From: Microthyrium microscopicum
Lineage: Eukaryota
DNA: 64,000 bases
NCBI GenBank assembly: GCA_010405405.1
Contig: MU004230.1
Location: 1,894,627-1,958,626 of the forward strand
Reading direction: 5' to 3'
Shown: positions 1,424-60,265 of the stretch, one piece after another
Layout: each line of letters begins with the position of its first letter
Numbering within the stretch: position 1 is the first letter of the stretch
Position numbers and translations under genes: made by a program
Notes under the pieces: generated by a model
Databases searched by the model: none
What the model saw: the letters and a program-made list of their open reading frames with translations, nothing else
What the model was told of the DNA's origin: nothing

Positions 1424-4400
1424 ATGTCGCGCTCCAAGAAGCCATCTGCTTCCCCTTTGAGAATCCGCAAAACTAGGGAGAATCTCAACGCTCCCAACCA
1501 AGTGGGGCCTTCCAAAAGCAGAAAGACTTTCACCAAAAAAGAAAATGAATCGTCACACTCAATATTCTCCATCCCGCCTCTTTATTCTGCACCTCTTCCA
1601 CCACTCTATACACCAAGCGAAAACTCATCCTCTGTGACCATCACCAAAGCCAAGAGCACAATGTGAGATCGCCTCTATTCCTTATGAGCTGAGCTAACTA
1701 GTTATCCAGGGACGGATTTGCCGTTGGATTCATGACCGCCGCCAGCCGCGATGCTGCTGAGAAAAGAGCTCGCTACAAACCTGCGGCCGAGCCTGCTGCT
1801 CGACCACAATCAGAACCCGCTGTTCAGCGCTCGATGTCGGATGGCCAACAGAAGGATGAAAGCCTCCGTCGTCGAGTAGTCACACAAGTCAAAGCTAAAT
1901 TGCGCAAGCCGAGCAAGAAGGTATGTCAAGTCTTCGCTCACCCTAACCTGGTTACCAAGGAGACGCTGCTACTGTCCCTCTCGGCTCTAGCAATGCTTAC
2001 TATTCCTCCTTGCACCTCCATAACGACGGCTTCAGAGGCATATTTTAGCTAACAATAATAGGACCATATTGATAAGACCTCAGAATCTCTATTACCGGAA
2101 CCGCAATCCCCAGCACCGGTCCAAGAATCACAGTCTGACGTGCCTGTCCACGAACGTCAACCTGAAGCACCGGTCCAACTACATTCAGTTGCTTCTGACT
2201 GGGCCACCATCGCAAGCACTACAGATTCACGCGGTGCAGTGGAAGACTCTATCGTTGCTTCCAGCCAATATTCTATGGATGAGTCCGTTGGCAGTAGCAT
2301 CCTCGATCTGCGACATGTCTCTTATGACAGCATGACGGCTGCTCCAGATATCGCCAACGTCTTACAGAATCGAAAGCCCAGAACTTCCGTGGCAATTAGC
2401 GACGAAGCTTTTCCATCACACTCTGATTCTTCCCACAACAGTATGCATCCTAGTGCATTTAGCAGCGATGCTTTGTCCGGTCAGGCGCAAACAACTGCTC
2501 ATACGAGCATTTTTGATTCTCCATCGCGTCGAATGGGTGGATATGAGTCTCAAGCACACCCCTCAGCTTCCTATGAGCCTCCTACACTGACACTGAGCGC
2601 TTCTCTTTCTGTCTCTGCAGACATGGAGTCTTTAGAATCTTCACACGAAAACCGAAATGCTTAGTTGGCAATTCAAATTCGTGGTGAAGTGAAGAATCAG
2701 TCGGAAGATGAGAAATCTTCCCAGGTTGTTCCCTTTAACGCTCCTAGCTTAGCAGTGGCTATTGTTCTGGACAACTCGTACGTCCTCCCCTGTTTAATCC
2801 ATCAATATACTAATGATTGATAGTGCATTCGCATCTCCAATTTTCCTGCAGCAGGCAACTGAGCAAATCTTGAGAATCGCAAGTCTTCTACGCGGTCGTG
2901 CCGATCAATTTGGAATTTATGCCACTGTTACTGCTGGAGATGGAAACTCTTTGATGGAGCATGAGGTGTGCCCGCTGGGCACTCCCGCGCTTGGCCCCAT
3001 TCGCCGTGAGCTTCATGCTCTTAGTTGTCTGGATGTTTCGAGTCGTCACTATCCTAAGATAGGTGGTGCTGTTACACAAGCGTCTGACGCTCTGCGAGAG
3101 CTAGACTTTGCTCAACTCCATGAGACGCGAATTGCCAAGCGTGCCATAATAGTTATTGCTCCTCACTCTGTGGATTTTCAAGATGATGTCAGAGAGCTAG
3201 AAGGTGTTCAGCTTCACTATTTGTCCCCTGGTATTATACCAAGTCGGTCAAAGTGTTCAAGTGCTTACAGATGGTTCATCAATTCGCCCTTTGCTCAAGG
3301 ACGTCAGAAAGACGACATCCAGAGCGATGCTGAGTGGAACAAGACCTTGGGTGCACTATTGTCGTCCGCTCGTCATGCTTCGAAATTGGGAGCGATTCAG
3401 AACGTCAATATCGAGCTCATTCCAGGCCCTGAGACGAAAATCATTGACAAGATTAGTGATCAGTCGCTCGATTGCCTGCTTCCCGGGCAGAGTATTACTC
3501 TTCTGGTCAACCTAGAAGTCGAATCGCTTCAGGAGTATGATGGTGGTCAGCCAGGACCCAAGAAGGCTCCCGGCCACGGCTTTACCATGTCCCGTGCTAT
3601 CAACGACTTGGAAGTCATGCTCGAGAAGGTCCTTCGCGAGCTCATTACCGTGAAGGTAACTTATCAGCACTCGCATTTCCATGGTCACACTATGAACATG
3701 GAGGAAACAACATGGATTCGGCGTCCCGCTCGCACTTCACCAGAGTATGGTCCAAGGTAAGCTGCCGTGAATATACTCACTTTCGGGAACGTATGAACTA
3801 ATCTATTGCAGTCGACGGTTCTCGCAGATGCTCAGTTCTACTCACCAAGCTCTAGCTGTGAGTCTTGCTTCCAAGCCACAAGCTTCCGAGAGCATTGCAT
3901 CCCTTCAATTGTATTCTTCACATCTCATGGGCCTCGATGAAGGACTACTTGACCTCCTACATGATGAGTTGTGGTTTCAGCACAATGCAGACAGCACACA
4001 GTCTTTAGTGTCTCGATTCGAGCGGCAATCCCTCTCTTACAATGGAAGCATGCTCCGCAAGCGTTCCCAGCTCGATGTTAGCAAGCTTCGAGGAAACTCC
4101 TTCCAAAGCATGGGAAATTCTAGCCTCGAATTGCGCCGCTCTCGACTCGGTGATGGCACAAGAGGCACCATGCGATCGCCACTATTTCCTCCAGCTCCGA
4201 CCTCTACGCCCTTGAGCCCACAATTTCCACACCGTCGCGAATTCAGCAGCCAGTCTGTTGACAGCAATGGCGAAGACCCAGCTCGCATGATCTGGCGCAA
4301 TTTGCGACAAATGAGCAGAGGCAACGGCCCCGATACACCCCTTGAAGAAGACGAAGATCGCTTTGAAGAGCCGTGGATGAAAGAGAAGGTGGAAAAGGTG

Positions 4401-4511
4401 AAGCAGGAGGCTTTGCGTAACCGTCGAAGTATTGGTCAGGATACCTTGCGCAGCATGGCACGCTCGACTTTTGAGCGAGATGAATCAATGCCCAACATGC
4501 CTTTTGAGTAA
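1424..4511 (+). CDS. Five-exon protein with disordered N-terminus and vWA-like domain; one in-frame TAG at 2662-2664 (candidate editing- or readthrough-dependent gene, or recent nonsense allele)
   Basis: Exons 1424-1662, 1710-1920, 2062-2777, 2824-3756, 3812-4511. All four introns are GT..AG with CTAAC/CTAAT branch sites and correct phase, giving 933 codons with a single internal stop at codon 351. The vWA-like strand LAVAIVLDNSAFAS is formed across the exon 3/4 junction. Confidence 0.75.
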
Positions 4512-4531
4512 GAAGTTCGAGATTCCACTCC

Positions 4532-4670
4532 ATGTCAGCGAGAAGATTAATGTCAGCAAAAACTCATTGTCAACAAAAACAACATTGTTCGCGGAAAGAT
4601 GAATGTCAGCGGAAAAATTGATGCCAACGAAAAGACAGTGTCACCGATCAAACGAATGTCAGCGATGGAT
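4532..4670 (+). repeat. Degenerate 17-18 bp minisatellite (core ATGTCAGCG..), 8 units, just 3' of the stop codon
   Basis: TGTC/TGTT/TGCC cores start at 4533, 4551, 4568, 4586, 4604, 4622, 4639 and 4657. Confidence 0.65.
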
Positions 4671-5073
4671 TAGTTAGACAATTGTAGTCAGGTTTGAAAA
4701 GGTCATTACTACCCCTTCTGGATATGGGGGTTGGGATGCATGGCTCTTACTCTAGAGTAGAGTATGTCGTCTCAACCAGAATTAAATCATTGTTGCATAT
4801 TCCTCTAGGCCCATGCTATAGCCATATCCGTCTAGCATTGTTATTGTCGAAATATCTTGCCTTTCTAAGGCGACCACGTACAGTATGTATCTTTGCTTGA
4901 GCTCAGCGACCTTCATGCCACGCCGATTTCAAGTTGAGGATACTACTAGCATGTATAATCGATACCCCACTGGATAACTCGATCCACCTCTGCGATGCAA
5001 TGCACCCTTTGGAGCTGAAGTGGTAGATCTGATTCAGTCTTCAGTCTTGCAGAACGGCTGCAGAGTACTTTGC

Positions 5074-5848: not shown

Positions 5849-6020
5849 ATCAAAAGTCACTGGTATTCCATGTGGAGCTAGATAATCTACAGAAAACTAT
5901 GGTCGTCTTCTTTTCTCACTAGCAAATGTTTTGCTGGTTGGCGATTGACAGCAGGAATACAGCAATTCACGAATAAGTACGGTGCAATAATAACAAGAGT
6001 AACTTCAACGTCAACCGACC

Positions 6021-9000
6021 ATGCAGCAACACTTCGTGCAACGGAAGTCTCTTCCGCAAGAGCATCAGAGGTTGTCTCTTATTGAAGAGCGGGCTGGATC
6101 TCCTGAGGTAGTGGATCAAACTGCGCCTATGATGAACAATAGATACTCTCAAAGAAGGGGCTCCAGGCATACAACAAGTACAGGAAGTGGCATATCTACG
6201 CTCACTACAACACCAGAAGGTTCAAATACACCAAATACGCGACCAATAAGTCAATATTATGATCTTCCACCGATACTTCCACCAGTCGATTTCCACAATG
6301 GTCGCGCATCTGGAGGAATTCAGCGGCCAGTCTCTCCAGAATTCGCGGATATCGAAGTGTTGAATCCTCCACCCCCAATTATAGATCCCGCATATTCGCA
6401 TCGTAGATCTACTTCTGGAGGCAACCATAACCATCGATCATGGCAATCTTACAACTCCATTCCCTTGTCTGGGCGAGGCAGCCCCAACAATGGACGAGGG
6501 TCACCCTACACTGGAAGAGGAACGTCGATAACTGGCTCAGGCACACCAGTAAGAGATGGCAGCCCCGGGACGGACCGTGGATCAAGAGTATCAAGCAACA
6601 TCAACGTGTCTGTCAGTGTCTCCTCTCATACCCAGCTGGTCAACACAACAGGGTCAGAAAAGCGAAAGATGCACCCGCTTTCGCGGAAGATATCGCGCCC
6701 ATTTTCAAGGGGCAGACTCTCAGGAAGTCGTGGCCGACTTTCGCTTCGTGGATCTGAAGCTGGGCATTCCAAGAAGCTTTGGACTCCTTGGTCGCTTCAT
6801 ATTATTCTGCTTGGTCTCATAATGTGTTTTCTGGTGGCTACGATTGCAGTTCTTGAGGTAATCAACCACAAGTCACAAAAACAAAGTGGATTCGCTACGG
6901 ACAAAAGCAAGCCATACCTTTGGACATTTATACCACCGGCTAGTATGTATCCAAAATGTTACTCGTAGACTTCTGTCGCTAACTTGAACTGCAGTTTTCA
7001 CGCTTTTGCTCATTGCATGGAACAGAGTAGAATATCGAACGAAGCAACTCATTCCCTGGAAGTACATGTACAAAGGCTCTACCCACGCAGATTCTAGCGT
7101 TCTCCTGGATTACGTTTCTCCGCTCAATATAACAGCGCTTTGGAGAGCTGTTGGAATGGGCCATCTTCCAATTACTCTTGTAGTAGCTGGCAACCTGTTG
7201 ATCAAGTTACTGATCATAGCCTCAACCTTTTTATGGGGTTTGAAATACGTCCAGGCTCAAGTCCAATCATCTGGTTCCTCGGGCTTGACCACAGCCAACT
7301 TGTTTGATGCAAGCAGATTTTCATCAGGGTCAGTCGGCGGATTACCAGCCATGAATGCTCTATCCTCCTTGGCTATCGGCACGAATTACCCTGGTGTGAG
7401 CAATACAGACTACGCTGCATACCAATCAATAAGAGCGGACGGGACATACGGATCCATTTCGTCAACAGTCGATACGTTCCCGCCAAGTCTTAGTTGTCAG
7501 CAGGTTTCGCTCGGGGCAGTCAAGGATAATACAGATTCTTCATGTTCTGATCAGACATGTGCAGAAACAACATCCATTCAAGTTCTCAATGGCTGCCAGT
7601 CCAATTACACGATATCGATACCAGGCTCGAGCAATACCCAAGGCATTCAGCGATTTGGACTTGTAGTACTAATCGATTGTTCAAGCGCTTCCAGTACCTT
7701 GGGAATCTTCACTGGATATTTGAGTCGCGAGACAAATGTTACATCAAAGCTGATCAACAGCACGTCTATCATCTGCTCACCAACATATCAGGTTGGCAAA
7801 GCGGCCATCACTTTGAACTCAGCTGGTTCCCTTACTGCGTACACACCCAGCACTTCTACCTCGGCGCTCACTGGTCTCAACTCCGGGGCATTTCTCAAGG
7901 GTGTCTACAACTCTGCGTTGCTCGGGAACTTTCCTTCACCAGCCCAGCTATCAACCACTTCGAGTACCTCTTCTCAGTTGAGCTGGCCCAAATCACTTGG
8001 CAGCTTTACAGCAGCAGGACTAGCTCCCTTTTTGGTTCTTGCCGGCTACAGCTCACCAACGGCAAATTTCGAAACTGTTGGGGATCTCCAGTCTGCGTCA
8101 GTCAAGGCCCATAATATGCTAGCTGCACATGTGGCAGCAAAGTATCTGCAAGTAGCGTCAACCAAAGCAACAACTGGAACTGTTACACAGTTTTCTGCCA
8201 GGGTTATAGCCGACCAAGTCGCTGTCAGAATCATAGATGTCGTTGTTCTTCTACTGATACTGATTGTAGCTGTTATAGCATTTGAACGGCCGACCAAAGT
8301 CACTTCAAGAGATACCAGCACAATCGGTGGTCTAGCGACTGTCTTGGCTCAAAGCCCAGAAACCGTTTCCATATTTCGTGGCACAGTCAATCTCTCCCAA
8401 AAGCAGCTACGCAATCGGATCGGATCTCGAAACTTTACATGCGGTGTTCAAGAAAGTAGCCCTCCAGCATATACCATTCGGTCTACGGCCAGTGATCAAG
8501 AAGCTTCAATTACTGGGAGCTTTGAACCAGCAACTTTCGGAGCGCCGAAAGTTTGGTGGGATCCTCTTAAGGACTGGTATCGTATTGCTGTGATAATTGT
8601 TGGGTTCCTCTTCATCATGGCTCTCGAATTCATGAGTCAATCATCACGTAAACATGGTGGTTTTGGTCAACTTGGAACCTCAGGCGGTGTTCCTGCTATT
8701 GCGATATGCTTTCCTGCCTTTTTCCTAACTATACTCGGTGGCATTTTTGGCCTCATCGATCATTACACTCGTATTCTACAGCCATATCGCCAGCTCAAGA
8801 CGAATCCAAGCACTGCTCCGCAAAGTATCTTCGTCAACTACCTTTCTCGGCCGGCTCTCGTGGCAATCTGGGACGCAATCATGCGAAAGCATATCGCAGT
8901 TATTCTTACAGCTTGTGTGTCGATAATAGCACCATTTCTCGTCATTGTCGTCGGCTCCTTGTTTGTAAATCAGCCTATGCAAGCCTCCTCCTCGGTCACA

Positions 9001-10299
9001 GGAATTAAGCTCCAGACCATTTTCGACGCATCCAAAATTCCGAGTTTCAATCAAAGTGCTATTCCAATCATTTCCAATCTTCCGAACAACCGCTCGACAT
9101 CTCCAGCCTGGACCTATGACACATATGCCATTGATCAAATCGCACTTCCCTCTGGCTTTGCCCCAAGTGCTGATGGTACAAGCTCGTCCACTGGGCCGTT
9201 TTCTACGATGAACATCGTAGTTCCAGCGCTACAAGCACATCTCAACTGCACCCCTGCGTCTTCCTCAGATGTTCTTATCACAGTCACTCCGCCCAACTTT
9301 GGCACAACTGGAGTCCAGCGAATCATTTCTGTTCCAGTCCCAACTGGTTGTGGTACTCCATGTTCAAACGAAACTTTCTCGAGTACTTGCGATGGAAAGA
9401 CACGCTGGGAAGGAGCTTCAACGACGCAAATGTTCACCGACTTTGCATCATTGGCCGCAGTAGGAGGTCTTACCTTTGCGAATGTTGCCGATATGGGAAC
9501 CAACTCTACGTCCTGTCCGCGCTTCAATTTACTATGGGGCAAGAACTCGGCCGACGGTACATTACTCGAAGACTTTACAGTATACAACTGCTATCCATAT
9601 ACCAACAGTCTCTCGGTCAATGCCACGATTCAAGTTCCCGGCTACACCGTCACAAGTGCCTCACCATCCAGCAACAGCAATACATCTGTCTTTACAGATT
9701 CTCCAAAAGCCATCATAAACCCTAACACGATGTTCCCCAAATACAGCTCAAGCAGCATAGCACCTTGGTTTGGTGCTATCATTGACTCCGGTGATATCGC
9801 ATCATCCGATCTCACGACCACAACTAGCAGTCAAAAGATCATTTCCGCGATGGACGCCATGTACGGTCGCGTAACAGCACAAAACTTTAACTTGAACCGC
9901 CGATCCACAGCAAGCTCAAACGAAGCACAACTGAATGGCACCATTTCAAGTGCGTACGGAATGCGTCTGACGCAAGACACCACAATCACAAGAGTCCTAG
10001 AGGTAATGATTGCAATAATGATCATTCTCACAGGAGCCTCTTTTGCTTTCATGGACGGACGAAAGCTCGTCCCAAACAATCCATGTAGTATTGCCGGAAT
10101 GGCGTCTCTCATTGCAGACTCTGAATTGGTAAAGTCAGAACTGGTTCCACCAGGTAGCGAATGGCTTAGCGATAGGGAACTTCGAAGACAAGGCGTATTT
10201 GAAGGATATATGTTTAGTATGGGCATGTGGGGACATGCAGTGGAAAAATCAGAGAGTGTGTTTGGTATCAATATTGGCCAGGCTGAGAAAGTGGACTGA
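6021..10299 (+). CDS. DUF3433-type multi-pass fungal membrane protein (~1408 aa)
   Basis: Exons 6021-6942 and 6995-10299 (GTATGT..GCTAAC..GCAG intron). Two repeated modules: W..VEYRTKQLIPW..SSVLLDYVSP and IDHYTRILQPY..QSIFVNYLS. RDTSTIGGLA and NPCSIAGMASL motifs, several TM helices and S/T-rich Cys-containing ectodomains. Confidence 0.85.
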
Positions 10300-28600: not shown

Positions 28601-31600
28601 ACCATGCTGTTTCCAAAGCAGTTCATTCCACACTCGATGCTAACCCATGCTATATAACTGCTGGGGCATAGATTTTCATGCTTGACATCCAAATCTAAGT
28701 CGAGCCGCTTGAGTCAAAGCACTAATCGGCGGTGTGTTTTCTCCTATCAAACACCCCCTCTTAACGTTCGATCTGTCGCAAGGAAGAAAAGTACGCACTG
28801 AACACTAAGCAATATATCTTTGATTTGATAACCCCTCACACCCCACTCGGAAGCTATGGCCTTGTTAGGAAATGTGTCAATTGTATATTTCTGAGCACAC
28901 TTTGGCATTCAATGGCGATGTATGGATGTGAAATGCAAATGTGCCAACCTTACACATTTGTTGATCCGGAGAGGACTCCGTGATAAGAACACTGCAGTCT
29001 ACTGCAGCAAGCCTTGTTATAAAAGCGCTTTGAATCGGCTTCTTGTACGCCCTGACTGGGAATCTCGGAAACAGGGCTCTTATCTTCTCAAAGTAACGCA
29101 AAATAGACCCTTTAAATCCGTATATTTGGTGTTTTATACCACCATGACTTGGAAGCTTCAAAGCACCACCTATTTACCATTATAAGAGCTGTCAGAATTG
29201 AAATAGCGCATGATTGGAGAGCTCAAAAAAAGTCAAAAATATCTGCACTGCACCCCATACTGCTACCTAACCTTAGCGAGTGGAGTTTTGATACAGATTA
29301 AGTGCTGGTTCCAGCTCTTGTCAAGCTAGAGTCAGTGGCATGCGGCCATCGGCGTACGCCACCACGCACTCCAACAAGCAGACGTGCCATTCAAATCGAG
29401 TCTAACACTCTCCTGCCATCCAGTGCTGTCAAGAATCTACGACATGAAGACACATTCAGGGTTCACATAACTTACATAGTATCTTTTGCCCCTCACCAAG
29501 CTGCAGATCAGTGCTGTACGTTCCCTTTAAGGCAGAGGTCCATCGCCATACTAGTGATTGTGGATATATGCAGCATATATGGTGTGGTAGCAAAAAACCT
29601 TACAACTTGATAATTAAAAGCACCAGGGACCCTGATCGACAGGTATGAAAGCATATCATAGAGATAGTGGCCGCTCGGTCCGCACACGGTACCTTTTCAA
29701 ACTTGCGAGACAACAAGGGCGATCTGGGTGTGGTAGGGTCCTTAGGAAGCGTAAACTCGTTATCAGTGAGGTCGTTTGGTTGCGACCAATCGAACAGTGT
29801 TGATATTGGCCAAGGGTCGTACCGTAGTGCTGGCGGGCGAAATTGATAAGGGGATTGGCAGTGCCAATGCAGTAAGGCTGCGGGCTGGGTGTGCAAGGCT
29901 GGGGATCTTGGAGGCTATCTTACCTATTCCAGTCGGTGCCGATGGTATTGTGAGAAGGTCTATGAGTTCTTTCTCCTATACCGGAGCTTTTGTCTAAAGG
30001 TGTTTGGTTCCGTTCAAAGATAATGGACATAAGATATGTTAATGTCAGTAGTCGTAGGAGCAAGTAGATTACACTTGATCTTTGAAGCAACCAGACCCAA
30101 TAGGAACGAACAGTTACCTTTCAAACGCTATAGGTAGTAAGTGAAGCCATTGGCTTTGGAACTATACAAATACATGGCATCGTCAGTTCAGAGATACACA
30201 CTTTTGGACCCTTTACACGTCAAATCTTTAGAGAGTTCTGTAGGTAGCATTGGAGCCCTTGCATAGTGGAGAATAATAGAACTCCACTCTCACCGCCTAG
30301 ACCGTGTCTTAGGCTAGAATGCAAATTTTTTCCTACCTCTCAAACATTTATGGCCTACGAATCCCTTAACCTACATCGACGTTGTGGCGTGCCGCTAGTA
30401 ATCCCTAGATCTACCGTTCTAATTTAAAAGCGGTTACTACTACCAAAATTTTGTAGGGTATAGCTAAAGGGCTATTATCTAAAGGGGCTTAATAATTATT
30501 ATGAAGTACAGCATAAATTATTACATATAAATTTAATTCTTAGTATTAGTATTACTAAATTTATAAATACTCTATAATCTTTTTCTCTAGATTAATATAA
30601 TCCCCTTCTATTACTACTAAATAATTTAGTTAGTTTTTATCTAATATAGTAATAAATTATATACTTATAATGCTTATAATATAGCCTAAAATAATGTTTA
30701 TAAAGTAGAACTATATCTAGATATTTAATATAATGCCTAGTAGTAGTAAAAATATATCTATTTAGATAACTATTAGCTTATTACTAATAGTAATAGAAAC
30801 ATCTTCCTCTTCTACTACCTAAAGTAAAAGGAATAAGAGTATATTAACTTATAGTGAGTTAAATAATAGGTAATTTAGATTTAGGATAAATGTTAACTTA
30901 AGCTCAGTAGTATCTTATCTAGTTAACTTTAATTTTATAACTAAAATTAATGTATTTCTTACTAAATTCAATGCTATAGTCTTTAATTAGACCTTATATA
31001 TATAAATTCTAAGCTAGAATTAATTAAAATTGTCTTATATTTAATAGATATTATTAATAATACTAATTCTAATTATTAGTATAGTTAAGTTATATCTTAA
31101 GCTCTACCTACTAAGCTATAATGTAAGCATTTCTAATAGTTACATTAAGATTAAAAAACTATAGAGGAAACTATATTCTATTATTTAAAATAAATATATA
31201 TTAGTATAGAATTTTAAGAGCTTTTTAACAGTACTATTTTTAAGAAATAATATTAAGATTTAAAGTCTATAAAAACTCTAATAGCGTTTTTAGTTTACTT
31301 ACTTTAGTGGTAGACTATATAGTAAGCTTAATGTTAGTCCGTAATATTAACTCTACCTATATAGAAATTATAATCTATAGCTACTATAGGCTATTTGAGA
31401 TATTTATAAGATTTAGAACCCTAAAGATAATTAATATTCTCTTTCTTATACTTTATTATCTTCTTTAGGATTATAGGTTTAGTTCAAATAGCTTTTTTAG
31501 TAATTCTAACACTATAAGATATAGTTAGGAAGTATATAAGAATATAATCTCGCTATACTAGAGATAGTATATCTTAAATAACTAACTTGTTAGTCTCTCT

Positions 31601-32078
31601 TTAAGGCTATTTATTATTCTTCTTATTAAAAAAAGTATACTCTTTAGGGTATTCTTTCTAATTAGTATAAGTAGTACCTACTATAGTAATTCTATACTAC
31701 TATAGGGCATTAAATAGGTATATAGACGTAAAGAAGTTATTATAAAAGATAATAAAGTTGTTTTGCTAAAGAGAAAGAGATAAGTATAATTAGATTACTA
31801 CCTAAGCTATAAGGCTTAATTTAGTAAAGAATATAGGTATATCTCTAGGTGAACTCTAGCTTAACCTATAGGTAAGAATATTAATATTCTCTCTAGTTAA
31901 TTAAAGAGATTTAGAGCGTGTAGTATAAAGCAGGTTGTAGACGTATCTATAATTATATAAAGTAAGTATTTTAAATCCTTTTAGGATTAGTTTACCCTTA
32001 ATATAAATCGTGTTGCCTAATCTACCTATATATTTTACTATTATCTTATTAATTAAGATATAGGTCAACGGCGTAATA

Positions 32079-32307
32079 TGTAAGGATCTAATAGGCACGT
32101 AATTAAGCAAAGAGTAGATAATATTTAACGATCTAGCGTACGAAGAGAGAGAGAGAGGTAGAGTAGAATCTATACTAAGGGAAGAAGAGGATAATGCTTG
32201 GAAGATCCTTAGGGACGCTAGTTCTAATTAGGACTAGCGCTGCTAGATCTTTGTGTAAGATCTAGCTTAATACTAAAGCTATTATGCTTTAGCAAGGAAT
32301 CCTTATA
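32079..32307 (-). repeat. Gypsy 3' LTR
   Basis: TGTAAGGATC...CCTTATA (RIPped ..TACA); direct repeat of 39630-39858, differing mostly by transitions. Confidence 0.92.
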
Positions 32308-35300
32308 TTACTCCTTCTTCTAAAACTAGCGCTCTAAGTTACGTTCTAATCTATGCTATTTTATTCTAGGCTAGGCTAGGCTAGTCTAGTTTAGTCTAGT
32401 CTAGTCTAATCTAATCTGCTCTATATTTAATAAAATGCTATTTGCGCTCTTTTGCTATTCTACTATTCTCTAGCTTGCTAAGGTAACTGTCTAGGTATTA
32501 ATAAACCTAGATATCCTTAGAATACTTTAGTTTATAGCGCTAATAAGGCGCTAATAGTAGCGTAATATAAATAAATAAATAAATACTTTTATTCCTCTAA
32601 CTAGTTATCTAGTAAACTATTACTATCATAGTTAGTAGAGTTAGATATATTAGGTCTAATAATAGGTAGTAACTACTTAGGGTTAGGGCTAGGCTTTGTA
32701 AGATTGTATTTATAGAAGTCGTAGATTAGGTTCGCTACGTTCTTAAGGTCTTTTTATAGTTACTATAAAGGTATATCGTAATTTATCTATTTTATAAGGT
32801 ATTCTAACTTCTTACAGGTGTCCTTTTTATAGTGGCTATTAAGGATTTTATTAACTTACTACTCTTCTTCTTCTTATACTTTACTTACTACTACTAGTAG
32901 AGGGTTATATTAACGTAGAAGTTCTATATTGTTTATAATAGTATATAGTAGCTAAATGTAAAATATAAGGTATATCTTTATATACTTTAGTAGGTTAAGT
33001 TTAAATATAATAGCGTTAAGCTTCTTTAGGATATAGAATAGTTCTACGCTTTTATTATTAAGAGTTTTAAACGCGCGTATTATATAGTAGTTTTAAATAT
33101 CTAGACGTACCTAGTCTTTAGGTTAAAGATCTAGTGCTACATATTAGTGCTTATTAGCTTATTTAGCTTATTATACTTATACCTATATTAGCTATTCTAT
33201 AAGATAATTATATATATTTTTATAGCCTTCCTATATCTTATTAGCGTCTTTTTATTCTTATTAAGCTAAAGAGGAGGAGTATTAGTACGGTGCTAGTGCT
33301 TAGTAAGCTAATTTAAGTCTAAATTTAGGGAGGAAGTTATATTAGATCTTAAAGAGAGTAAAGCTTATCATTATATTAATAGCAAAGTTAATAGTAAACT
33401 TTATAAATAGTAGTAACTAGACTTAGTTATCCTAATTTTAGTTAATAAAAGTATAAAGATATTACTTAAGTATTAATATTAAGATTTCTATAATTCTATT
33501 AGTTTATAAGTACTATATAGTACTTAGCTATAGTACTATACTTACTTAATTATATAATTATTTCTAAAACGCTAAAGTAAACTATAATCCTCTATCTAAT
33601 AAGATTATATTTAGCTATCCTATTAATTTCTAGACTTAATTTATAAATATAAGAACTATTATTTCTATAGAGAGGTTAGGTAGGGGGACAAAGCGTCATT
33701 AGTAGGTATATTAGTCTATAATAATTATAACGTAACGAAAAGTAATACCTAAATAGATATATTAAGATAGAGAGATAGTAAAGTTAATTAAGATATCTAA
33801 CTATGCTTACTTTAGTAAAGGGAAAGACTAAAGAAGTTCTTACTTCTTTTAGTAGATTAGTTTAGTAAAGATATATTTATATTTTAAGATGTACTTCTTT
33901 ATATTTTGTAATATATATAGCTACTAGTAATTTTGCTAGAGCTAGTAATAAGTAGTTATTAAGCCTTTATAATCTATAACTTTATAGTAGTAGGTATATA
34001 TTATAGCGTGATAATAAAGCTTGTCTTTAGATATTAGAATACGTTAGTAATAAAGGACTAGACCCTTTACTAAGATTATATAGTTACTAAGCTTAATGTC
34101 TTATTATTCTAGGATGCTAAAAGGAAGATATAATAATCCTTCTTGCTTAGTATAGTAAATAGTATTTAGCAACGCATCGTCTTTACCTACTTCTATTATT
34201 TCTATTAGAAACTAATTGACGTTAAAATTTAGGGATTTGTTAAGCTCTAAGAAGTTGCCCTTAGGCGCGTTCTTAGGCTGGTTTTTATTACTAAGGTTTA
34301 CTATTATAGGGTTCTTTAATAACTCTTTTGTTTTGGTAGGAAAATCTAACTTATTTGTAATAATAGTAGTAATCTATATAAGAGATAACGTAATAGGTTT
34401 AACTAGTAGGCGTGCTATCTTAATTATATACGTAGTATTAAATTAGTAGAGAAAAAGTAGAGAGTATACTTAGTGCTAAATATATAAATTATTATTATTC
34501 TAGGGGAGATCTTAAGAGTACTAAGTTAGTATATTTGCTTTTTTATTAGCTAGTCTAGGATAATATATAATCTTAAAGTAGAACTATAATAGAAATTCTG
34601 CTTAGCGTGCTTAATAGTGTAAAAGCTTTTTAGTAATTATAAACGTCTATAGATTTTGATAGTTAAAGAATACTTTAATAAGATTGTTAGTAGAGAATAG
34701 CTCTAGTTCTTATTTCTTAAAAGCGTATATAATTATAAGAAGCTTTTTGTTATAAATATTATAGTTATACTTAGCTAGAGATATCTTCTTTAATAGGAAC
34801 GCTATAGGATATAGATCTTTATTATTATTTTTTTAAGATAATACTTCTACGTATACTTAGTTTAACGTGTTAGTTTTAAGCTAGGTTTCCTTAGTATAGT
34901 TAAAGTGTTTTAGAATAGGTGCTATTATAAACGCCTTTTTTAGTTTATTAAATGCTTAGTCTTTAGGACCTTTAATATCTTATAGGAAGATAGTTACGAT
35001 GTCCTTCTTTATTAAAGCTATAAGAGGTATAGCAATTTCTAAGTATCCTTATATAAAATAATAATAGAAGTTAGTAAAACTTAGGAAAGCTTAGATATCT
35101 TTTATATATAATAGTTATTTCTATTCTAGTACTAATTCTACCTTTATTAGATCTATCTTAATACTTTTTATAGTAATAATTAGCTCTAGATATTTTACTT
35201 TTATAGTAGTAAACTTTAATTTATAGATATTAAGATATAGACTAGCTTTTTCTAGTTTGTTAAGTACTAAGTATATATAAGTTATATGTTCTTTATATAT

Positions 35301-38300
35301 CTTACTAAAAATAAGAATGTCGTCTATATAGACTATAGTAAAGTTGTTAAGATACTCTATTAGTATATAGTTAATATATACTTAAAAGGTACTTAGAGTG
35401 CTTATTAACCTAAAGAGTATAATAATAAACTTATAGAGACTATATTATATAAAGAAGGCTATTTTGTGCTTATCCTTAGGTTTAATTTATATCCGCTCGT
35501 AGGCTATAATGACGTTAAATTTATTATAGTATTGTACTTAATATAGCTTTGCTAAAGTATTAGAAAGTAATAGTAGTATGTTTTTGTTTTTATAAGAGAT
35601 TTTATTAAGACCTTAATAATTAATATAGACTTAAATACTTTTACTAGGTTTATATACGTATAATATTAGTACTATAAAGTATAATTTAGAAAGGCGTATA
35701 AAGCCTTTCTCTAATAGACTTTCTAGATACTATTTAATAATAATATTCTATTTTAGGTTTATGCTAGTATTATATTATTTAGGTATAGTAACGTTTAGTA
35801 TAAAATTAATAGAATAATTAAAACTTAGGTAGTAGGGTAGTAATTTATTTACTTTTTATAGGTTAAAGACTTTAAGATAGTAGTAAAACTCTTTTAGGAT
35901 TATCTTATAAAGTTCTTTGTAAGTAAGATAAGGTTGTTTATACTTTTCTTACTACTTCTTAAAGTCGTGCTTTAAGATAGCGAATAGGTTAATCACTACG
36001 TTATTTATAAAGAAGATTAGGTTTAATATTCTTAAAAGATTAAATAGTTTTAGTTCTTTTATTAAAGGGCTCTTTAGTAAAGGGCTATCTAGTAGCTTCT
36101 TTTCTTTAGGCTTAGTAAAGTTCTTAGGATAGAGAACTTCTACTTTCTATCCTTTTTATTTTACTAATATTATTATAATACGTATAAATATAACTACTAC
36201 TTTTTTATCTTTAAGAAGTTTTATAACGAAATTATATTAACTATAAGTATTAACTTTAATAGGGCGGTGTATTAAAATATAGTTATAAAAGTAATAATAA
36301 GAGTTAAATATAATAGTCTTTTCTTTTCCTCTTAGGTATACTTTATAAAGTTAGATCTAAGGGTTACTAAGAATAAGGTTATAAGTAGCTACCTTTATAA
36401 TGAAGTAATATATTTATTTAATATAACTTTTAATGCGTATAGTAACTAGTATAGCTTTATTGATTTTAATAATAGTTTTCTTATTTATAAGCTTTACTAA
36501 GCGTAGTTAATTAAGCTATATTTTTGATATATTATGCTATTTAATAAAGTAAGTATAGATAATTCTAAGTGCGTTACTACTAGTATTAATTAGAATGTTA
36601 TATTTCTTAAAGGCGTTAGCCTTTAGAATTAATATGTCTTTAACTATTGTCTATTATAGCCTTATAAAAGGTATATAGTTAACGTTATTTAGTAGTAGCT
36701 ATTCTGAATTAATTACTATTATGAATAGTTAAATAATATAATATACTTCTAGTAGTGGATTTAGGTTAGCTTGCTAAGCTTCTAGCTTTTAAATCCTATT
36801 TTAAATTTAGCCTAACTTATGCTTTTTTTACTAATTATATACTTCTTGTAGATTTAGCTCTTTCTTGCGTTAGTAAGGTAGAGCATTTAGTTTAAATACT
36901 TGCGTAAGTACGTATTAAGTATTTCTACTTATAAAGCGTTCGTAATAGTAGTAAGTATTGCTAAGACCTTTAGTTAGATTTCGTTATTTATTAAGTGAGT
37001 CTTTTATTTATAGGGAGCATCCTTTTGTTTTAAAGTGTAACCTTTCTTACTATACTTAGGGCATTTATTTTATGCTTATAAGGCTAGAAAGATATTATTA
37101 GAGCGGCGTAGACGTTTATTACTATTCTAATTATTGTTATTATAGGCGCCTCTATTCTAGTTCTCTAAATTGTTAGTTAAGTTATTATTGTTAGCGCTAT
37201 TACTATTAGAGTTATTAGTATTAGAATTATTATCGTTATTTTACTTTAGGAAGTTTAGGTCTTACTTTACGTCGTATAGATATATATAGAGTTTTGGGTA
37301 GGTTTTAATATTACGTCTTATTAAAAGATAAATAAATTATCTTAGAAGAAGTAAGCGTAGTTTTATAACTTTATTGTAATCCTCTAGATCTGTATCTTTA
37401 GTCTTCTCTAAAAAGTAGCTTAAGAATTTTATTAGGTTTTTTATAGTCTTTATCTTAGTATCTGCTAAATAGAGCTATTACTTTGTAATATTATATTTAT
37501 TAATTACTTTGTTATAAGTATCTAGGTCTTTTTATATATTATTAATAGTAAGGTAAGGGCTTATAGAGTTGTAGCCTAAGTGACGTAATATTAAAGACTA
37601 TGCTAGATTATTTAGGTTATTGTAGATAAACTAAATCTTCTTTTTATTAGTTAGGTAAAACTAAGTATCTTCTTCTAGAACGTTTAATACCTAATCTTTC
37701 TATTAGTAGTATTTATTTTTATCCTTACTATTATATTATTTAACTATATAATGAGATTAGCTAATATGTAGAGTAGTATTATTTAAGGGGTTAGACTCTA
37801 CTTTTAAGAAAGGTAATATAAAACGCGTTTGTATTAGATTAGGTTAAGTAGCTATAAGTTAATATAGTATAATATTAAGTAATTTAGCGTCTTCTTTATC
37901 TCCTAAGCGTATAAAAGCTAGTATATTATAAGGTTTTATAAAGGTTAGAAGATTCTATATCTACTACTTTATAGTATAAAGATATTAAGTAAGGGATTCG
38001 TTTTTAATATTAAGATTTATAATAGTAGTATTCTAAAGTTGTATTTGCTTACAATATTCTTAGAGTCGTTTTATATAATATACTAACTTTACTTCTATAG
38101 AAGTAGTATAGTTTTCTATTGCTTAGATATTATGCTATAATTAATAATAATTAGAGGTAAGTTTATAGTAATTAATTATACTAATCTAAAGTTCTTTAAC
38201 TTTTAAGAAGAGCTTATCTACTTCTGTCTTATAGTTAACTATAGAGCCTTTTAGGTTATTTACCTTATTTATAAGATTTTAGATCTCTTCTAAGGACTTA

Positions 38301-39629
38301 GTATTTTGGATATTGCTCTTTTGTAATTTATTATAGTAAAATTAGTAGCGTACTACTATAGCTTAGTTTATAGCTAAAGTAGCGTAAAGCTAATTAAATA
38401 AGAGCTAAGGGTCTTTTTAAGTAATTTCTTGCTTTAGCTCTTAAGCGTTATAAATTAGATAGTAATCTTTAAATACCCTAGTAGTAGGATTAGGTTCTTA
38501 ATAATAGAATAGTAATAATAGGTTTAAGGGACCTTTTAGTATAGCTACCTTTAGATCTTTATAGGCTTATATTTAAAGAGAGCCTTAGAAGACTTAGAAG
38601 AATATAATACGTACTGTATTATTAACTATTAGGTAGTTGTTTTAGAAAGCTAGAGGAACCTCTTTACAACTATTATTCTTAAGCTATATGTCTTATAACT
38701 AGACTAATATAGTAAGATAGATTCCTTTAAATATCTTTTCTTCTTTTATATTTTGTATATTCTTATAGAAAGCTAAAGAGGTTACTAGAGTAACTAGTTC
38801 TACTAAGAGTATAGTAAATACTATAGTTTTAATTAGTTATAAGAGTTTACTACTAGGCGTATACTAAATAGGTAATAGGATTAGCTTCTAGTTTACTTAT
38901 CCTTAGGTTAATAAATTAAAGAGTAAGAGGTTATTATCTTTATTAGAATTAATATAAGATAGCTAGCGCTTACTCTTTTCTTATTAAGAAGTCTAAATAG
39001 TAGCTTAAGTAGATTCTTACGTATTTACTACTATTTTCTTTATAAATAAGCCTTTAGGACCTTAATCCTAATAGTGGCTAATAACTAATGTATAGTAGCT
39101 ATAAGAGGGGCCTAGAACTATGTTATCTTAGCGTTCTAGAGATACGAACTATGATTAAGAGCAAGTAGTCACGTTAAGGCTTAGAGGCGTTAAGGGAAGA
39201 AACTCTTTAAGAGGGTTTATAGTTTCGTTAGGTAGTTACGTAGGGGTAATAACGAGTAATAATAATTAGATAATTTCTTAATTACTAGGGATAGATAGTT
39301 GATAGATTAAGGGTAATTAGAATGTAGATTAGTAATATAGAGAGAGGTAGAAGGGCAAAGGTTCTATATAGCTAAGTAGAGGGGTTCTAAGAGCTTAGAC
39401 TACTATAAAATCTAAGTGTTTATATTAAACACCTTATAAAGACAATTAATTAGTGTTTTAGAAAGTAGTAAAAATATACTACCTAATCGTATTAAGGAGT
39501 TTATAAGTAAGAACGCGCGTAAGCTATCTCTTAAGTATAAGTTTTAAAATCTAGGAGCGCTAATCCCTAAGGATAAATACGTAAATAATTTTAAAGTTAA
39601 TTTTTAGTTTTAATAGGTATGCTAGATTA

Positions 39630-39858
39630 TGTAAGGATCTAATGAGCACGTAATTAAGCAAAGGGTAGATAATATTTAACGATTTAGCGTATAAAGGAAG
39701 AGAGAGAAGTAGAGTAGAATTTACGCTAAGGAAAGAAAAGAGTAATGCTTAGAAGATCCTTAGGGACGCTAGTCTTAATTAGGACTAGCGCCGCTAGATC
39801 TTTATATAAGATCTAGCTTAATACTAAAGCCATTATGCTTTAGCAAGGAATCCTTATA
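39630..39858 (-). repeat. Gypsy 5' LTR
   Basis: Direct repeat of 32079-32307 with the same length. Confidence 0.92.
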
Positions 39859-41917
39859 TAATATAAAGCTTAAAGCGTATTTATAGAGTAGAGGATAAGG
39901 ATTTAATTTTAGTAAAAATAGGCTTTTTTTAATAGGTCTATAATAGCGTAGGCGATAGTAATATTATTAAAGTTCTAGTAGTAGTATCTATAATAGGAAT
40001 AGTAGATATATAAAGATATCTTTTAATATACTAAAACTTACGCTATAAAAGGAACTAGCTAATAGAATAATAGGGATTAACTTTATCTTAAAGCTATAGG
40101 TTATCTATATTACTAATTCTATAAGTACTTAAATAGATGTAGATTCTATAGAATATTTTAATCTTATTAATACTAATTAATATAGGAATGCTTTCTTTAG
40201 GTGTAGTATAGTAGTATAATTAATAATTAAGGGTATTCTTATAAATAATTTTAAAGTCCTCTTGTTTCTAAAATAGGCTAAAGAATAGTAATAGCATATT
40301 AAATCTTATTATATAGTCGTTAGGGCTAATAGGTATTAAGTACGCAACTAAAGGTACTATATTATAGAATCTAGCACCTAATTCTATAATATTTTAAGAA
40401 GGAATAGTTGCTATTAGATTAAAGAAGTCTATAGGTAGGTTAATTAATATTTTAATATAATTTAGTAATAGTAATAAGACGTAGTACTTACTAGGATATT
40501 TATAGATTACTACTTTTAACTTATTGTTACCTTTATAGCGCGCGTTAAGTAAGTTACAATGTTTAGGATCTCTATAATTAGGCTTGTAGGTATAAAAGAA
40601 GTTAAGATTAGCGTTATCTAATAGTACTAATAGTTTATTTAATTCGTCCTTTTTAGGATCTAAAAAGGTATCTATTATATTCTTCTAATCTTAAGTAATA
40701 ACCTTAAAGTCTCTATCTTCTAATTAGTCTTTAGCCTAAGTTTTTATAATATCTAGAAGATTTAGTAATTTTAGTATAATTAGCTAGTAGTAGAAGTATA
40801 AAGGGAAGATCTAGGCTAAATGTAGGCTATAGAATAGGATCTAGAAGGTTAAGATCTTAAAAAATAGGCGGATTTAGTTACTAAAGTACTATAATACTAA
40901 AACTTATCTAAAATATTTAATATTCTATATCCTATATCTCTAAGATAAGACCTATCTAATAAATATAAATTTATATAGGGCAAGATATTAGGGGTTAAGA
41001 ACTAATTAAAAGACGCCTTAGATTTAAAGTTTATAATTCTCTCGTAACTCTACTAATTAGGCCCTTTTAGGTAAGGAACCCACATACTACTATAACGTCA
41101 ATTTCTAGTGCGGATAGGTTAAGGGATAATGAGCTGCTAAGCTGCAAGTAGATATAATCAATTGAGTAATAGGAGTGCTGATCTGGGGAAGAACTAGAAG
41201 AGGTGGATATGGTTCTTCTCATGGATTCGAATAACTTCAAGGATGATTGTGGAGGAGAGGAAAATCCACATGAATTAAACGAACTCGTTAATAATTGACC
41301 ACGCCACTGATGTGGATCGTTGATTTCGATGCCTACCTAACCTATCATGCCCATCCAGTATAACAATCGAGAAAATGTACCTACCAAGAAATTCAAGGTG
41401 CTTGGCGGAGCTAGATTAACCCAGGGATAATAAGGTATGTTGTGCATCATGGAAACTTTATACTGAGTGAATCATACGAGAATGGATTGACTTTTCATTA
41501 AGTCTCCTGGAGTCCTGACCACTAGGTGAGACTGATTTGTTGCATAGCATGATATGATTGAACTAGAAGAAACAGTTGTTCTAGAAGAAATGTACTACCA
41601 ATAATGGATTGAATATATCTTCTGTGCGGTAGGCTGGCTGTAGAATGATGTATGTAAATTGGATTGGTTCCCAGCGAAGCGGGGTCAGTTGGCAAAGCGT
41701 TGTAGTTCACGCTTTTCACATGCAGATATTCCACATGAGAGATAATCAATGCGGCGGTTAGTGGTTGTCGGAAGAAGGAGCGTGGCCAATCGACTTTGGA
41801 ATGTCAAACGATGGAAACGATCAACGAATTTAGGATGATGGATCGATATGACGTTGGAGAAATCGAGACTCTATGGCCCAACAAAAATACTTCTTGCATT
41901 TGTGATCTGATCTCCGC

Positions 41918-42130
41918 CAACGGCATGGCAAAATAAATGGCGTACTCCCATCAATTCTGATGGCTACCACCAGCGCTGCTAATTAAAAGGCGCTTTGATT
42001 CCCATCGTATCTGATAAATGCTCCCAATCTGAACGCCCTTTTTGGCAAATAAAGCACTCGATAACAAACCGTAGCCTCTGGGCGCCATCAGAGTTGATGG
42101 GAGTACGCCATTTATTTTGCCATGCCGTTG
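41918..42130. mobile_element. MITE, 213 bp, ~47-bp TIRs, 5-bp TSD
   Basis: TIR CAACGGCATGGCAAAATAAATGGCGTACTCCCATCAA(T/C)TCTGATGGC at both ends with 1 mismatch. TCCGC is duplicated at 41913-41917 and 42131-42135. Confidence 0.88.
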
Positions 42131-45559: not shown

Positions 45560-47224
45560 TTGTCTGTTGTAATCTGTCTGAGTATTCCCATCGGTGGCAG
45601 TTTGATGGTTCATGTTCGGGCGTCAAAAATGTTCCGCATAGCATGGTTATGATATCAAGAACTGGAGTTCCCAGTGGTGGAACCAATGGAAAGCTGGCTT
45701 CAAATGTATCTAGCTTAGCCAAGTGAAGAACAAATAGTTACTCTCGAATAAATATGAAGGTCGTATTTGTCTGCTGATGTTGTACATTCTTTGGATATCA
45801 AAATCACAAGTCAGGTAATTCCGGGGAATATTTCCGAGCTAAAGCAAGCGACTAGTACTTCCTAGCGCTGAGAATTAGTTTAAAAATAAAACGTAGTTTG
45901 ACTTGGCAAGGCTGAGAGATACCGTAGGAAATCAGTGAATTGAGCAACGTGAATTTGTGGAGGGAGAGGGCGTTTGATGGCGTTTTTAGTGAGGTTCCTG
46001 TAGAAACGCCCCTAGTAGTAATTTACTACTAATCCATTTTTATAACTATAAACCCTGTAATCCTGTTCAACTTCATATTATCTTAAATAAGGAATTCCAA
46101 TATTAAAACAGGCATATTTAAAGCTTAAGATATTAAGAACTAGACGATATAGAATTATATATAGGTATATAAATTAAAGCGCTCTTTTTGATATTAATAT
46201 TACTTAGTCGTTACTAATAATTTTCTTAACTCTACTAGATTTGCTATAGGTTAAGAATACTGCCTAATTTAACGCTAAACGACCAATATTATAAGTCTTA
46301 TTACTAATAGAATATTGCTATTAGATGTCCTATCTTAACATTTTAAGTAGGTTCTAGAGTGGGATCGTAGGCCTATTTAGGAAGCTATTAATGCTAGTCT
46401 TTAAGTATCTATTTTAGTAACCTAAGAGCATCCTACTATATAAAATAGGTAGGATTTAACTCTTTAAGTTTGCTATAGGATTCAATTTAGGGGGGGGCAT
46501 TGGATAGCAGTATTAGATACTAATTCTAAAGGGGAAGAGGTTATAGATTTAGAGGGAGAACAGGCTAAGGTATAATAAATAGCTAAGATATCTATAGCGG
46601 TATAAGAATAGGTAAATTTTATAGTAGGACGTCTATCATCCCTATGAAGGACGTTATAAATCTATTATCTTCGTCTAAATTAATATTAGTAGCGTTATCT
46701 TTAATATTAACATCTTTAGTATCTCTAGTATTAACTTTAGATGTTAGAATCTTATCTTCATTATAATATTCCTTACCGTTATTATTACTAACATTAGATA
46801 CGTATACTTTAGGATTATTAACCTTCTCTTAAAGATCGTCCTATTTAGCGATAGTATCTTTAATAGATTCTAGCTTTACTAAATACTAGTTTAAAAGGTC
46901 TAGTAGTTGTAGTAAATCTTTAATACTAATGTTATAATGCTTATTAGTAATAGTAGTATTTAACTAATTATTTAATCCTATAGCAATAAAGGAGCGCCTA
47001 ATAACTTTAGTATTATAAGTATATATTTAATTCTACGCCTATTCTATAATATACGTTATAAATATGCAATATTAAGATATTATCTATTCTAGAGGCTCTA
47101 TAGATTTTATATTAAGGAAGTCTTTAAAGCATTCCTATTAGTAGAATGTAGGGGCCTATATATCTTACAATTCCTTAACTATTTGTTTAAAGAGCTTGTT
47201 TATGCTAATATTAAGTAGTTAGAT

Positions 47225-47550
47225 TGTAAGAACAGGAATACAAGTAGCGCCATTATAAAGGTATAGAAAGGATATAATTAGACTAGTATTAACTAGCATG
47301 TTATATTATATACTAAATAATCGTGTATAGAATCTCTAAAGCCTCTAGAATTAGGGGGAATTCTAGGGCATTAAATACACCTAAGGGAATAAAGATTATC
47401 TTAGCCTTTGTTAGTAATCTTTAAAGATCTAATAAAGATCTTTAATTAGATTACAAAGATCTTTAATTAGATAACAAAGACTATAAAGAACTAATAGCCA
47501 AATAGGTTAGTTCTGAAAGAATACTAGTATTAAATCTAGTTATTCTTACA
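47225..47550 (-). repeat. Copia 3' LTR
   Basis: TGTAAGAAC...GTTATTCTTACA; direct repeat of 52279-52604. Confidence 0.93.
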
Positions 47551-50500: not shown

Positions 50501-52278
50501 AATAGAAGTAGCTATTCTAGAAATAAAACAGTTCTCTACATCTAATTTAAGTAGGTATAAGTTATTAACTTTAAGAGCTATTATAATAAGCTTTTTATCT
50601 TTATAAATTAGAGCTATATTATCTTTAAATTCTATAGTAAAATTAGAAGATAACTTACTTATAGAAATTAAATTAACGCCTAGATCAAGACAATATAAAC
50701 AGTCTTTTAATTTAAATAATATTCCACTAAGTCTAACTACTATATCTCCAATTCCAGTAGCTATAATAGTGCCTACCTTACCCCAATTAATAGGAATATT
50801 ACATAGTTTAAAACAATGAAACCATGTCTTATCTACTATTAAATAAGAACTAGCCCCTAAATCTAATATAAAATTAGTAGGTTTACTTATAGTAGAAAGT
50901 AATAATACGTACGCTTATTCTTCAGTATCTAAGTAATCTATAACATCTTCGTAAGCGCCTAGTATCTCAGGCTAAACAGTATTAGATTCTTCGCTTTTAG
51001 TACTTTTATTATCTAGATCTAGATCAAAGTCTAGCTCTATTAGTAAATCTAGGTTAGAACTAGTAGTAACTAGTACCTAGTCTTCTATTCTAGCTCAAAC
51101 GAGCTTAGTAGATTTAGATTTCTTACTAGAATCCTTTAAAATCTTGCCATTATTTAGCGTTTTTTAAGTTATTAATTTAATTCTAGGCTTACTATAATCA
51201 ATAGCAACATTGGCTCATTCTTAACATTTAAATAACTCTCTAGTTCCTAGAGAATATCTAGCCATATTTAGATTATCGTTAGATCTAGATCTAGATTCTC
51301 GTTCATCTATTTTACCTCCATAACGGAACCAACAGCTTGCTAAGTAATAGCCTATCTTTTTACAGTAGTAGCACTATTTACTAGAATCAGGTCAATTATT
51401 ACGTCTAGCGCTATATTAGTTATTAGATCTATCGTTAGATCTATAATTACTATAGAGTACTATTTCCTTTTCTAGGTATTCTTGTCTTCTAGATTCGTCT
51501 AGTAAATTAGCAAAAAGAACTTCTAGATCTATCTCTAGCGTCTTATCACGGTAAGATTACGTAATAATACCAACGAAAGCGTCATAGCTTAGTGTTAGCC
51601 TATTAAGTAACCAGGCAGCTACGACCTATTTTAGCAATTCTATGTCTTTCGAAACGAGTTAATCTAATAACGATTTAATTCGATTTAGAAACTCTTCCAT
51701 AGAGTTAAATCGGGTTAGGCTAATATCAAAGAACTCCTTATAAATCAGGAATTCACTAGAGAAACCTTTAAAACTATATAAATTACTAAGGGCTATCTAG
51801 GTCTCTAGAGCTATATTATATTTACTAACTTATAGTAAGAGTCCATTTTCCAGGGCCAGCCTAATATAGGATAGTGCTTTAGCGTCCATTTTAGCCTAAA
51901 CAACTACATCATCTTTAATAGCCTTATCTATCTCTTTATTTACTAGAACGGCATACATTCATAGCTTCCACATGTCGTAGTTATCAGAACCACGCAATTT
52001 CGTAATTTTGTAGGGATCCATAGCTTCATATTAGTCAGATCTAATAGTACTAAAAATTTAAAGCTAAAATATCTATTTTTAGTAAAGATATTATTAAGTA
52101 ATATTAGTTAAATTTACTTATTCTTATATAGAAGTAATAAAGTATAGTTAGAATATGTATACAGGGATACAGCGTTTAAAGCTTCTTATTAGTTAAATGC
52201 TTACTAGCGTCATTTCTTTGTTCTTAAAGAGGTTAGTTTTAATTAGATACTTTTTAGCTTTGTTCCAGGCTTATAACC

Positions 52279-60200: not shown

Positions 60201-60265
60201 ATGGGTATTGGGAGGAGCGTGCGACAGGCCAGTGGACAGGAGTGGTGGATGTTATGGAGACGTGA
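57260..60265 (+). CDS. OSH3: Oxysterol-binding protein homolog with GOLD, PH and ORD domains, 976 aa
   Basis: Exons 57260-57295 and 57371-60265. GOLD (SYLVRW..KKSLNFGIFKHP..LVFDNTFSK), PH (GVLHKQRRK..YAKRFFSL..LRGAIPL), FFAT-like EEFYDAED, ORD signature KPFTPMLGETFE and EKISHRP. Confidence 0.92.

Follow-up and report, generated by a model that had tools for sequence, protein, structure and literature searches.

Can a gene that is interrupted by a stop codon in a fungal genome still be expressed at full length? That question is raised by a stretch of 64,000 nucleotides from Microthyrium microscopicum (GenBank assembly GCA_010405405.1, contig MU004230.1, positions 1,894,627 to 1,958,626 of the forward strand; hereafter the window, from whose first letter all positions below are counted), in which a transcribed gene of the plus strand carries a single in-frame TAG. 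Our data partly support this site as a credible candidate for editing of the 'premature stop codon corrected' (PSC) type in an unexpected class of fungi, because the TAG is the sole stop in 853 codons, the four introns of the gene are intact, the codon falls in a tryptophan column of the protein family, and it is displayed in a hairpin in a way that few comparable sites are. We put the underlying reading, conditional UAG-to-UGG editing at A2663 as at the PSC sites of Fusarium and Neurospora, close to an even chance and just short of it.

A lone stop codon in a spliced transcript

Public sequencing runs were aligned over 1500-4700, and the contig of one of them, X5 (4717 nt, depth 159), is spliced. 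It lacks four introns with GT..AG ends, at 1663-1709 (47 nt), 1921-2061, 2778-2823, and 3757-3811, and this splicing bore out the RNA nature that had been guessed for the run. The contig is unbroken from 2060 to 2777, so the TAG is retained in the mature mRNA, and the surroundings of the site hold 0 in-frame GTRNGT..AG candidates for an intron able to remove it. When the exons are joined, the frame runs for 853 codons from an ATG that arises across the 1662|1710 junction (a second in-frame ATG stands at 1732), and residue 272 is its single internal stop; in the unspliced DNA, the open frame of 2062..2664 (200 aa) and that of 2665..2820 abut and share one reading frame. The UAG that a preliminary description of this DNA had called premature is thereby a genuine stop in the spliced mRNA, at a conserved tryptophan column and in the apical loop of a hairpin. 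The gene comprises the following features.

1710..1920, plus strand: exon with the N-terminus, bounded by the RNA contig joints 1662/1710 and 1920/2062, both GT..AG
2062..2777, plus strand: exon 2, with the TAG inside; codes for a weakly conserved N-terminal stretch, probably disordered, after which the conserved folded region starts
2662..2664, plus strand: in-frame TAG, residue 272 of 853, in the conserved tryptophan column; A2663 is the candidate editing target
2778..2823, plus strand: intron of 46 nt, GTACGT..TGATAG, which begins 114 nt 3' of the TAG; defined by the RNA contig
2824..3756, plus strand: exon 3, with a predicted VWA-like domain followed by a beta domain (homologs, ortholog model, and fold search)
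3812..4511, plus strand: final coding exon, which ends in the natural stop (4509-4511)

Upstream of the junction ATG the frame stays open to 1358 with further ATGs, and the start may lie up to ~100 residues before that ATG. The X5 contig extends 1431 nt upstream of 1500 and may cover a neighboring plus-strand gene at 313-1062, which has a weak ubiquitin-conjugating-enzyme match; merged overlapping transcripts or a long 5' leader would explain the extension.

To an artefact, whether a sequencing or assembly error, an unrecognized intron, or a nonstandard genetic code, we assign next to no weight. The DNA contig of run X3 (the probable source, depth 982) is identical at this base to the RNA contig of X5, which comes from another study, with 0 differences. 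An unrecognized intron is rejected on the continuity of the RNA contig and the want of candidate introns given above, and reassignment of TAG is excluded by uninterrupted frames of 760-1103 codons in the window. Two more runs, X6 and X7, which bear a different organism label, match at 99% or more and lack coverage of 2535-4249, hence of the TAG.

What the interrupted codon once specified can be read from the protein family. A full HMMER scan with exon 3 returned 52 relatives at E <= 1e-3, and 13 long homologs, whose BLAST alignments crossed the TAG or whose lengths were sufficient to, were aligned with the spliced product. The TAG column holds W in 10 of these 13, F in 2, and C in 1, within the motif W-[AV]-x-[VI]-[EQD]-[VI]. 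Because tryptophan has a single codon, the ancestral codon was TGG, and one G-to-A substitution turned it into TAG. The homolog alignments begin ~25-30 residues before the TAG. For most relatives (P0002-P0011) the called gene has its start only a few residues away from the exon-3 equivalent, which probably reflects gene calling of the open-reading-frame type on contigs, halted by the preceding intron; the two closest homologs, P0002 and P0003, begin just before that equivalent and are without the TAG column.

The stop can also be placed in the predicted structure. For seven proteins, of which three are pieces of the gene and four are homologs, Pfam gave 0 families at E <= 0.1, VWA models included. 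The AlphaFold model of the Verruconis ortholog P0032 (901 residues) is disordered to residue 289 and well folded afterwards, with a predicted local distance difference test (pLDDT) of 80-95 over most of 290-750, and W317, which is the tryptophan of the TAG column, sits in a strand (315-325) in a pLDDT block of 90. The fold matches of P0032 include ArnAB (8s05, E 3.4e-14), the bacterial VWA protein 4fx5 (1.9e-12), Sec24, and ITIH1, where the low TM-scores (0.16-0.34) stem from the use of all 901 residues of the model as query; its UniRef name is 'VWFA domain-containing', and its Atlas neighbors are VWA clusters at 0.85-0.90. The fold is accordingly modeled as a VWA domain with an attached beta domain, and on that model the TAG lies at the very start of the folded region, such that an unedited product would lack essentially the whole folded part.

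The same family data bear on a rival explanation, in which the TAG is a plain young nonsense allele: a recent G-to-A change, perhaps strain specific, in a dispensable and fast-evolving VWA-family gene, with nothing restoring the frame. We regard it as a strong contender that nevertheless falls somewhat below an even chance. Nonsense alleles occur in every genome, the RNA carries an A at 2663, and no unknown machinery is needed. The family is patchy and divergent, with identities of no more than 49% and 45-46% to the best homologs, which makes loss of the gene plausible; the named members (Venturia, Verruconis, Coniosporium, Cenococcum, Phyllosticta, Agyrium, and Thelocarpon) are confined to Dothideomycetes and lichen-forming lineages. 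The product of the interrupted gene itself was returned by none of three protein searches, one of them a near-length search without any matches, whereas the annotated protein of the neighboring gene was recovered at 100% identity; the source record probably lacks an annotation for the interrupted gene, which annotators seemingly treated as broken. Against a plain nonsense allele, the rest of the 853-codon frame has stayed intact, as have the four introns; together with the lack of a RIP signature (below), this argues for a change that is recent or tolerated. The mutation itself, a G-to-A in TpG, is of the type made by repeat-induced point mutation (RIP), and RIP acted in the AT blocks of this genome. 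The gene body, in contrast, is without a RIP signature (TpA/ApT 0.59 and (CpA+TpG)/(ApC+GpT) 1.44, versus 1.69 and 0.26 in the AT-rich block), and 27 kb separate it from the closest AT block; we counted this lack of a signature for editing.

The hairpin around the stop codon

The TAG is displayed in a predicted hairpin with the following parts.

2639..2689, plus strand: predicted hairpin of 51 nt, made of an outer stem, an internal loop, an inner stem, and an apical loop
2639-2649 / 2678-2689, plus strand: outer stem of 11 bp with G2683 bulged; pairing probabilities (P) 0.86-1.0 except C2644-G2684 at 0.5
2654-2661 / 2667-2674, plus strand: inner stem with an A2657.A2671 mismatch

The preliminary description had folded by hand an 11-bp outer stem with one bulge and a set of inner pairs, and in a fold with 30 nt of context on either side all of these are predicted at high probability (apart from the one pair at 0.5), with P of 0.92-1.0 for 2654-2656 / 2672-2674 and 2658-2660 / 2668-2670. 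U2661 and G2667 also pair (P 0.975), which leaves a predicted apical loop of 5 nt, UAGUU, at 2662-2666. A2663 lies within the hairpin loop in all 5 of the 5 context sizes from +-30 to +-150 nt. The +-30 nt fold has an MFE (minimum free energy) of -17.4 kcal/mol, against a background mean of -9.9 (standard deviation 3.8).

That the hairpin would be more stable than shuffled or codon-preserving controls was borne out. Among dinucleotide shuffles of 2620-2710, 4 of 200 were equally stable (z -2.71), while its stability was reached by 7 of 1000 sequences under synonymous-codon resampling and by 10 of 1000 under synonymous permutation within the region. The combination of loop and stability is likewise uncommon within the window. 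Of 603 UA sites in coding stretches, 242 lie in a hairpin loop and 21 have an MFE <= -17.4, and 10 combine both; 4 of 118 UAG triplets in any frame combine them, the real site among them; and when 78 tryptophan codons were changed to TAG in silico, 35 fell in a loop and 2 were equally stable, the only one to do both being the real site. The 5' arm encodes variable residues (SSHE, RNA) and the 3' arm a conserved strand (LAIQIRGEV), an asymmetry that adaptation of the free side toward pairing would predict.

For a plain nonsense allele, such a hairpin would be a coincidence, or the hairpin possibly raised the mutability of the base. TGG-to-TAG makes up 2.8-6.7% of the possible single-base nonsense changes in the coding sequence, according to the mutation weights chosen; taken with a hairpin display expected for about 1-3% of sites, a random nonsense change would combine the two roughly once in 1000 cases. 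The excess over synonymous controls, too, is unexpected under neutral coincidence.

The sequence immediately around A2663 agrees in part with that of edited sites. Fusarium sites prefer C/U at -2, U at -1, A/G at +1, G at +2, A/G at +3, and A/G at +4 (PMC9600606). By those rules UU[A]GUUG carries favored bases at -2, -1, +1, and +4, a neutral one at +2, and a depleted one at +3; positions -1 and +1 are dictated by the TAG itself. The preliminary description is supported in its comparison with Fusarium, where a hairpin loop with U at -1 and G at +1 is the context described for Tad2/Tad3-dependent editing (PMC9600606, PMC4817773).

Its more specific proposal was that the hairpin mimics a tRNA anticodon arm, with the stop-codon A at 'position 34' of a 7-nt loop that reads AGU, a threonine anticodon. 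That reading is over-stated. The 7-nt form of the loop (-15.1) carries a penalty of +2.3 kcal/mol relative to the 5-nt form (-17.4), an A.A mismatch occupies the equivalent of 28-42, and an 11-bp helix replaces the tRNA body. Position 37 of tRNAs is a purine, and its equivalent here is U2666. The AGU match is uninformative, since any loop that holds UAGN can be numbered U33-A34-G35-N36, and in eukaryotes the tRNAs of each of the four AGN anticodons have A34. ARAGORN found 0 tRNA genes in the window, and Rfam gave 0 matches at E <= 1 in 2300-3000. The arm of a tRNA with A34 (the substrate of ADAT2/3, that is Tad2/Tad3; e.g., tRNA-Thr(AGU)) thus shares with this hairpin a U-A-G-U in the loop, the U-A being present at '33-34', and the residual likeness, a U-A in a stable loop, is a published preference of fungal editing. 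The resemblance of edited loops to the anticodon loop or to U33-A34 has been in print since 2016 (PMC4817773, PMC11156358, PMC11169179), and eukaryotic ADAT2/3 is described as requiring a full tRNA (PMC8216470).

The hairpin could also matter without any editing, if the stop were bypassed by low-level UAG read-through or if the 271-residue fragment were functional and the hairpin served mRNA stability or localization. The mRNA is present and spliced, and the N-terminal frame is open for at least 271 codons, as such an explanation would have it. We nonetheless find it improbable. The bases after the stop, UUG GCA, are unlike known read-through contexts, and a ribosome at a stop in the apical loop would already have unwound the 5' arm, leaving no downstream stimulator. 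A functional truncation would consist of precisely the nonconserved, predicted-disordered part of the protein, and re-initiation would yield a truncated domain, given that the first in-frame Met 3' of the TAG falls within the VWA-like domain.

Possible editing in a Dothideomycete

The preliminary description had noted that a host outside the Sordariomycetes would point to restorative editing in a lineage where it is not established, and the host does lie outside that class. An oxysterol-binding-protein frame at 57371-60262 (964 codons) shows 100% identity, with 100% of its length aligned, to a protein of Microthyrium microscopicum, and the next named matches, to Tothia, Verruconis, and Venturia, stand at 58-62%; the class is Dothideomycetes and the order Microthyriales. 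Should conditional UAG-to-UGG editing operate here, the mRNA in most cells would be degraded, or would give no more than an N-terminal fragment of 271 residues that is probably disordered. An adenosine deaminase of the Tad2/Tad3 type would act on A2663 at one stage of the life cycle, most likely that of the fruiting body, and make it inosine; UIG would be decoded as UGG (Trp), yielding the full-length 853-residue protein. The hairpin would act by keeping the U-A step single-stranded in its loop, a feature common to Fusarium edited sites and anticodon loops, and not as the mimic of a particular tRNA. PSC pseudogenes that are corrected in this manner in Fusarium graminearum and Neurospora reportedly include PUK1 and AMD1; the VWA-like family is not known to contain a PSC gene.

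PUK1, AMD1, and the 71 PSC genes share with the present gene a lone in-frame UAG in an intact, transcribed gene, a stop derived from TGG, U at -1, the A in a hairpin loop, and a truncated product without the folded domain (PMC4817773, PMC10776026). Fusarium PSC stops are TAG, derived mainly from TGG, and PSC transcripts are present in Fusarium hyphae (PMC10776026); the presence here of a spliced mRNA that bears the TAG, as in those transcripts, was counted for editing. The differences are the Dothideomycete host, the A in the RNA consensus, and the VWA-like family.

A further parallel is CHE1 of F. graminearum, whose PSC UAG stands at a tryptophan position between an unstructured N-terminal part and C-terminal domains, in a conserved hairpin-loop position, in a gene that gene callers split or truncate (PMC11169179). 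It is edited at 9-10% in vegetative hyphae without sexual-stage cofactors (PMC11169179), and we counted such low-level, cofactor-independent editing of a hairpin-loop PSC in favor of editing at A2663: a route of this kind would make the Ame1 innovation of the Sordariomycetes unnecessary. Editing was measured in CHE1, however, whereas the RNA contig consensus here is A, and the Tad2/Tad3 of Fusarium may be adapted to mRNA. Escherichia coli TadA offers another case of a tRNA deaminase that acts on a few mRNA hairpin loops similar to its tRNA target (Bar-Yaacov et al. 2017, as cited in PMC11169179), although this bacterial enzyme is a homodimer for which a stem-loop suffices and its sites carry the tRNA-Arg loop sequence, whereas only the U-A in a loop is shared here. 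A precedent outside the Sordariomycetes exists in the sexual-stage editing of Pyronema confluens, which is thought to have originated independently (PMC11156358, PMC11087585); that fungus belongs to a different class, the Pezizomycetes, and editing there was shown by RNA-seq. That M. microscopicum repairs the codon by A-to-I conversion, through either an independent sexual-stage system or a cofactor-independent Tad2/Tad3 on an exceptionally well-presented loop, is a possibility that we entertain with some doubt.

Several observations weigh against editing at A2663. The X5 contig has an A at this base and 0 differing letters over 1500-4700, and no A-to-G difference is seen at 2663, in what is a single assembled contig consensus, from which minor variants are lost in assembly and in which low-level editing would be invisible. 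The +3 position is a U, the depleted base at edited sites. Orthologous DNA was sought in metagenome contigs with patterns that already matched P0002 and P0003 exactly, and of the 194 pattern matches none was confirmed as a relative. The host belongs to a class with no documented editing lineage. In the available parts of the literature, the only fungi with documented A-to-I mRNA editing are Sordariomycetes and, among the Pezizomycetes, Pyronema, and searches for it in Aspergillus nidulans and Botrytis cinerea were negative (PMC11156358, PMC13431901); the contact of Ame1 with Tad3 by which genome-wide editing is enabled is placed in the Sordariomycetes (PMC11087585). The literature that we searched, some of it represented by listings alone, held no report of A-to-I mRNA editing in a Dothideomycete, which is likewise what a plain nonsense allele would lead one to expect (PMC11156358, PMC13431901, PMC11087585). 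Which further classes of Pezizomycotina edit their mRNA is described as open, with pseudothecium-forming fungi unexamined (PMC11156358, PMC7306014), and premature stops at PSC sites have also been noted in other classes (PMC10776026).

Finally, this is a single locus, and the statistical argument depends on the prior assumed for an editing system in Dothideomycetes. We took that prior as a few per cent and the joint likelihood ratio as ~30-150, both of which are estimates and not measurements; on these figures editing and a plain null allele are about level. Editing accounts for all of the sequence features together, but it presupposes an activity that is not known from any member of the class. 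Elsewhere in the window, at least 20 other frames with a single stop are listed, among which one TAG candidate, at 24271, translates to low-complexity sequence that does not look coding.

Surroundings of the gene and implications

Two AT-rich blocks in the window, at 30001-42000 and 46001-54000, have a GC content of 0.24-0.33 and strong RIP indices (TpA/ApT 1.69 and 1.46; (CpA+TpG)/(ApC+GpT) 0.26 and 0.42). A degenerate retrotransposon frame on the minus strand, at 50030-50914, has Pol beta-barrel and gag-pre-integrase Pfam matches. Located 3' of the interrupted gene, at 6003-10299, is a DUF3433-containing, membrane-protein-like gene with frames of 321 and 1103 codons, which lie 20 nt apart in different frames and are presumably joined by a short intron.

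The interrupted gene is a testable candidate for stop-codon repair in a named, cultured species, and either outcome would be informative. If the site proves unedited, it would be a clean case of a random nonsense allele that imitates every sequence signature of a PSC site, and a caution for prediction from sequence alone. If it is edited, restorative mRNA editing would gain its first site in Dothideomycetes, the class of Ascomycota that is the largest; the account that places the origin of editing in the Ame1-Tad3 interaction of Sordariomycetes would need to be widened, and in-frame TAGs in Dothideomycete annotations would need to be read again. Were the cofactor-independent route to be the true one, functional repair of stop codons would be possible without the Ame1 innovation of the Sordariomycetes.

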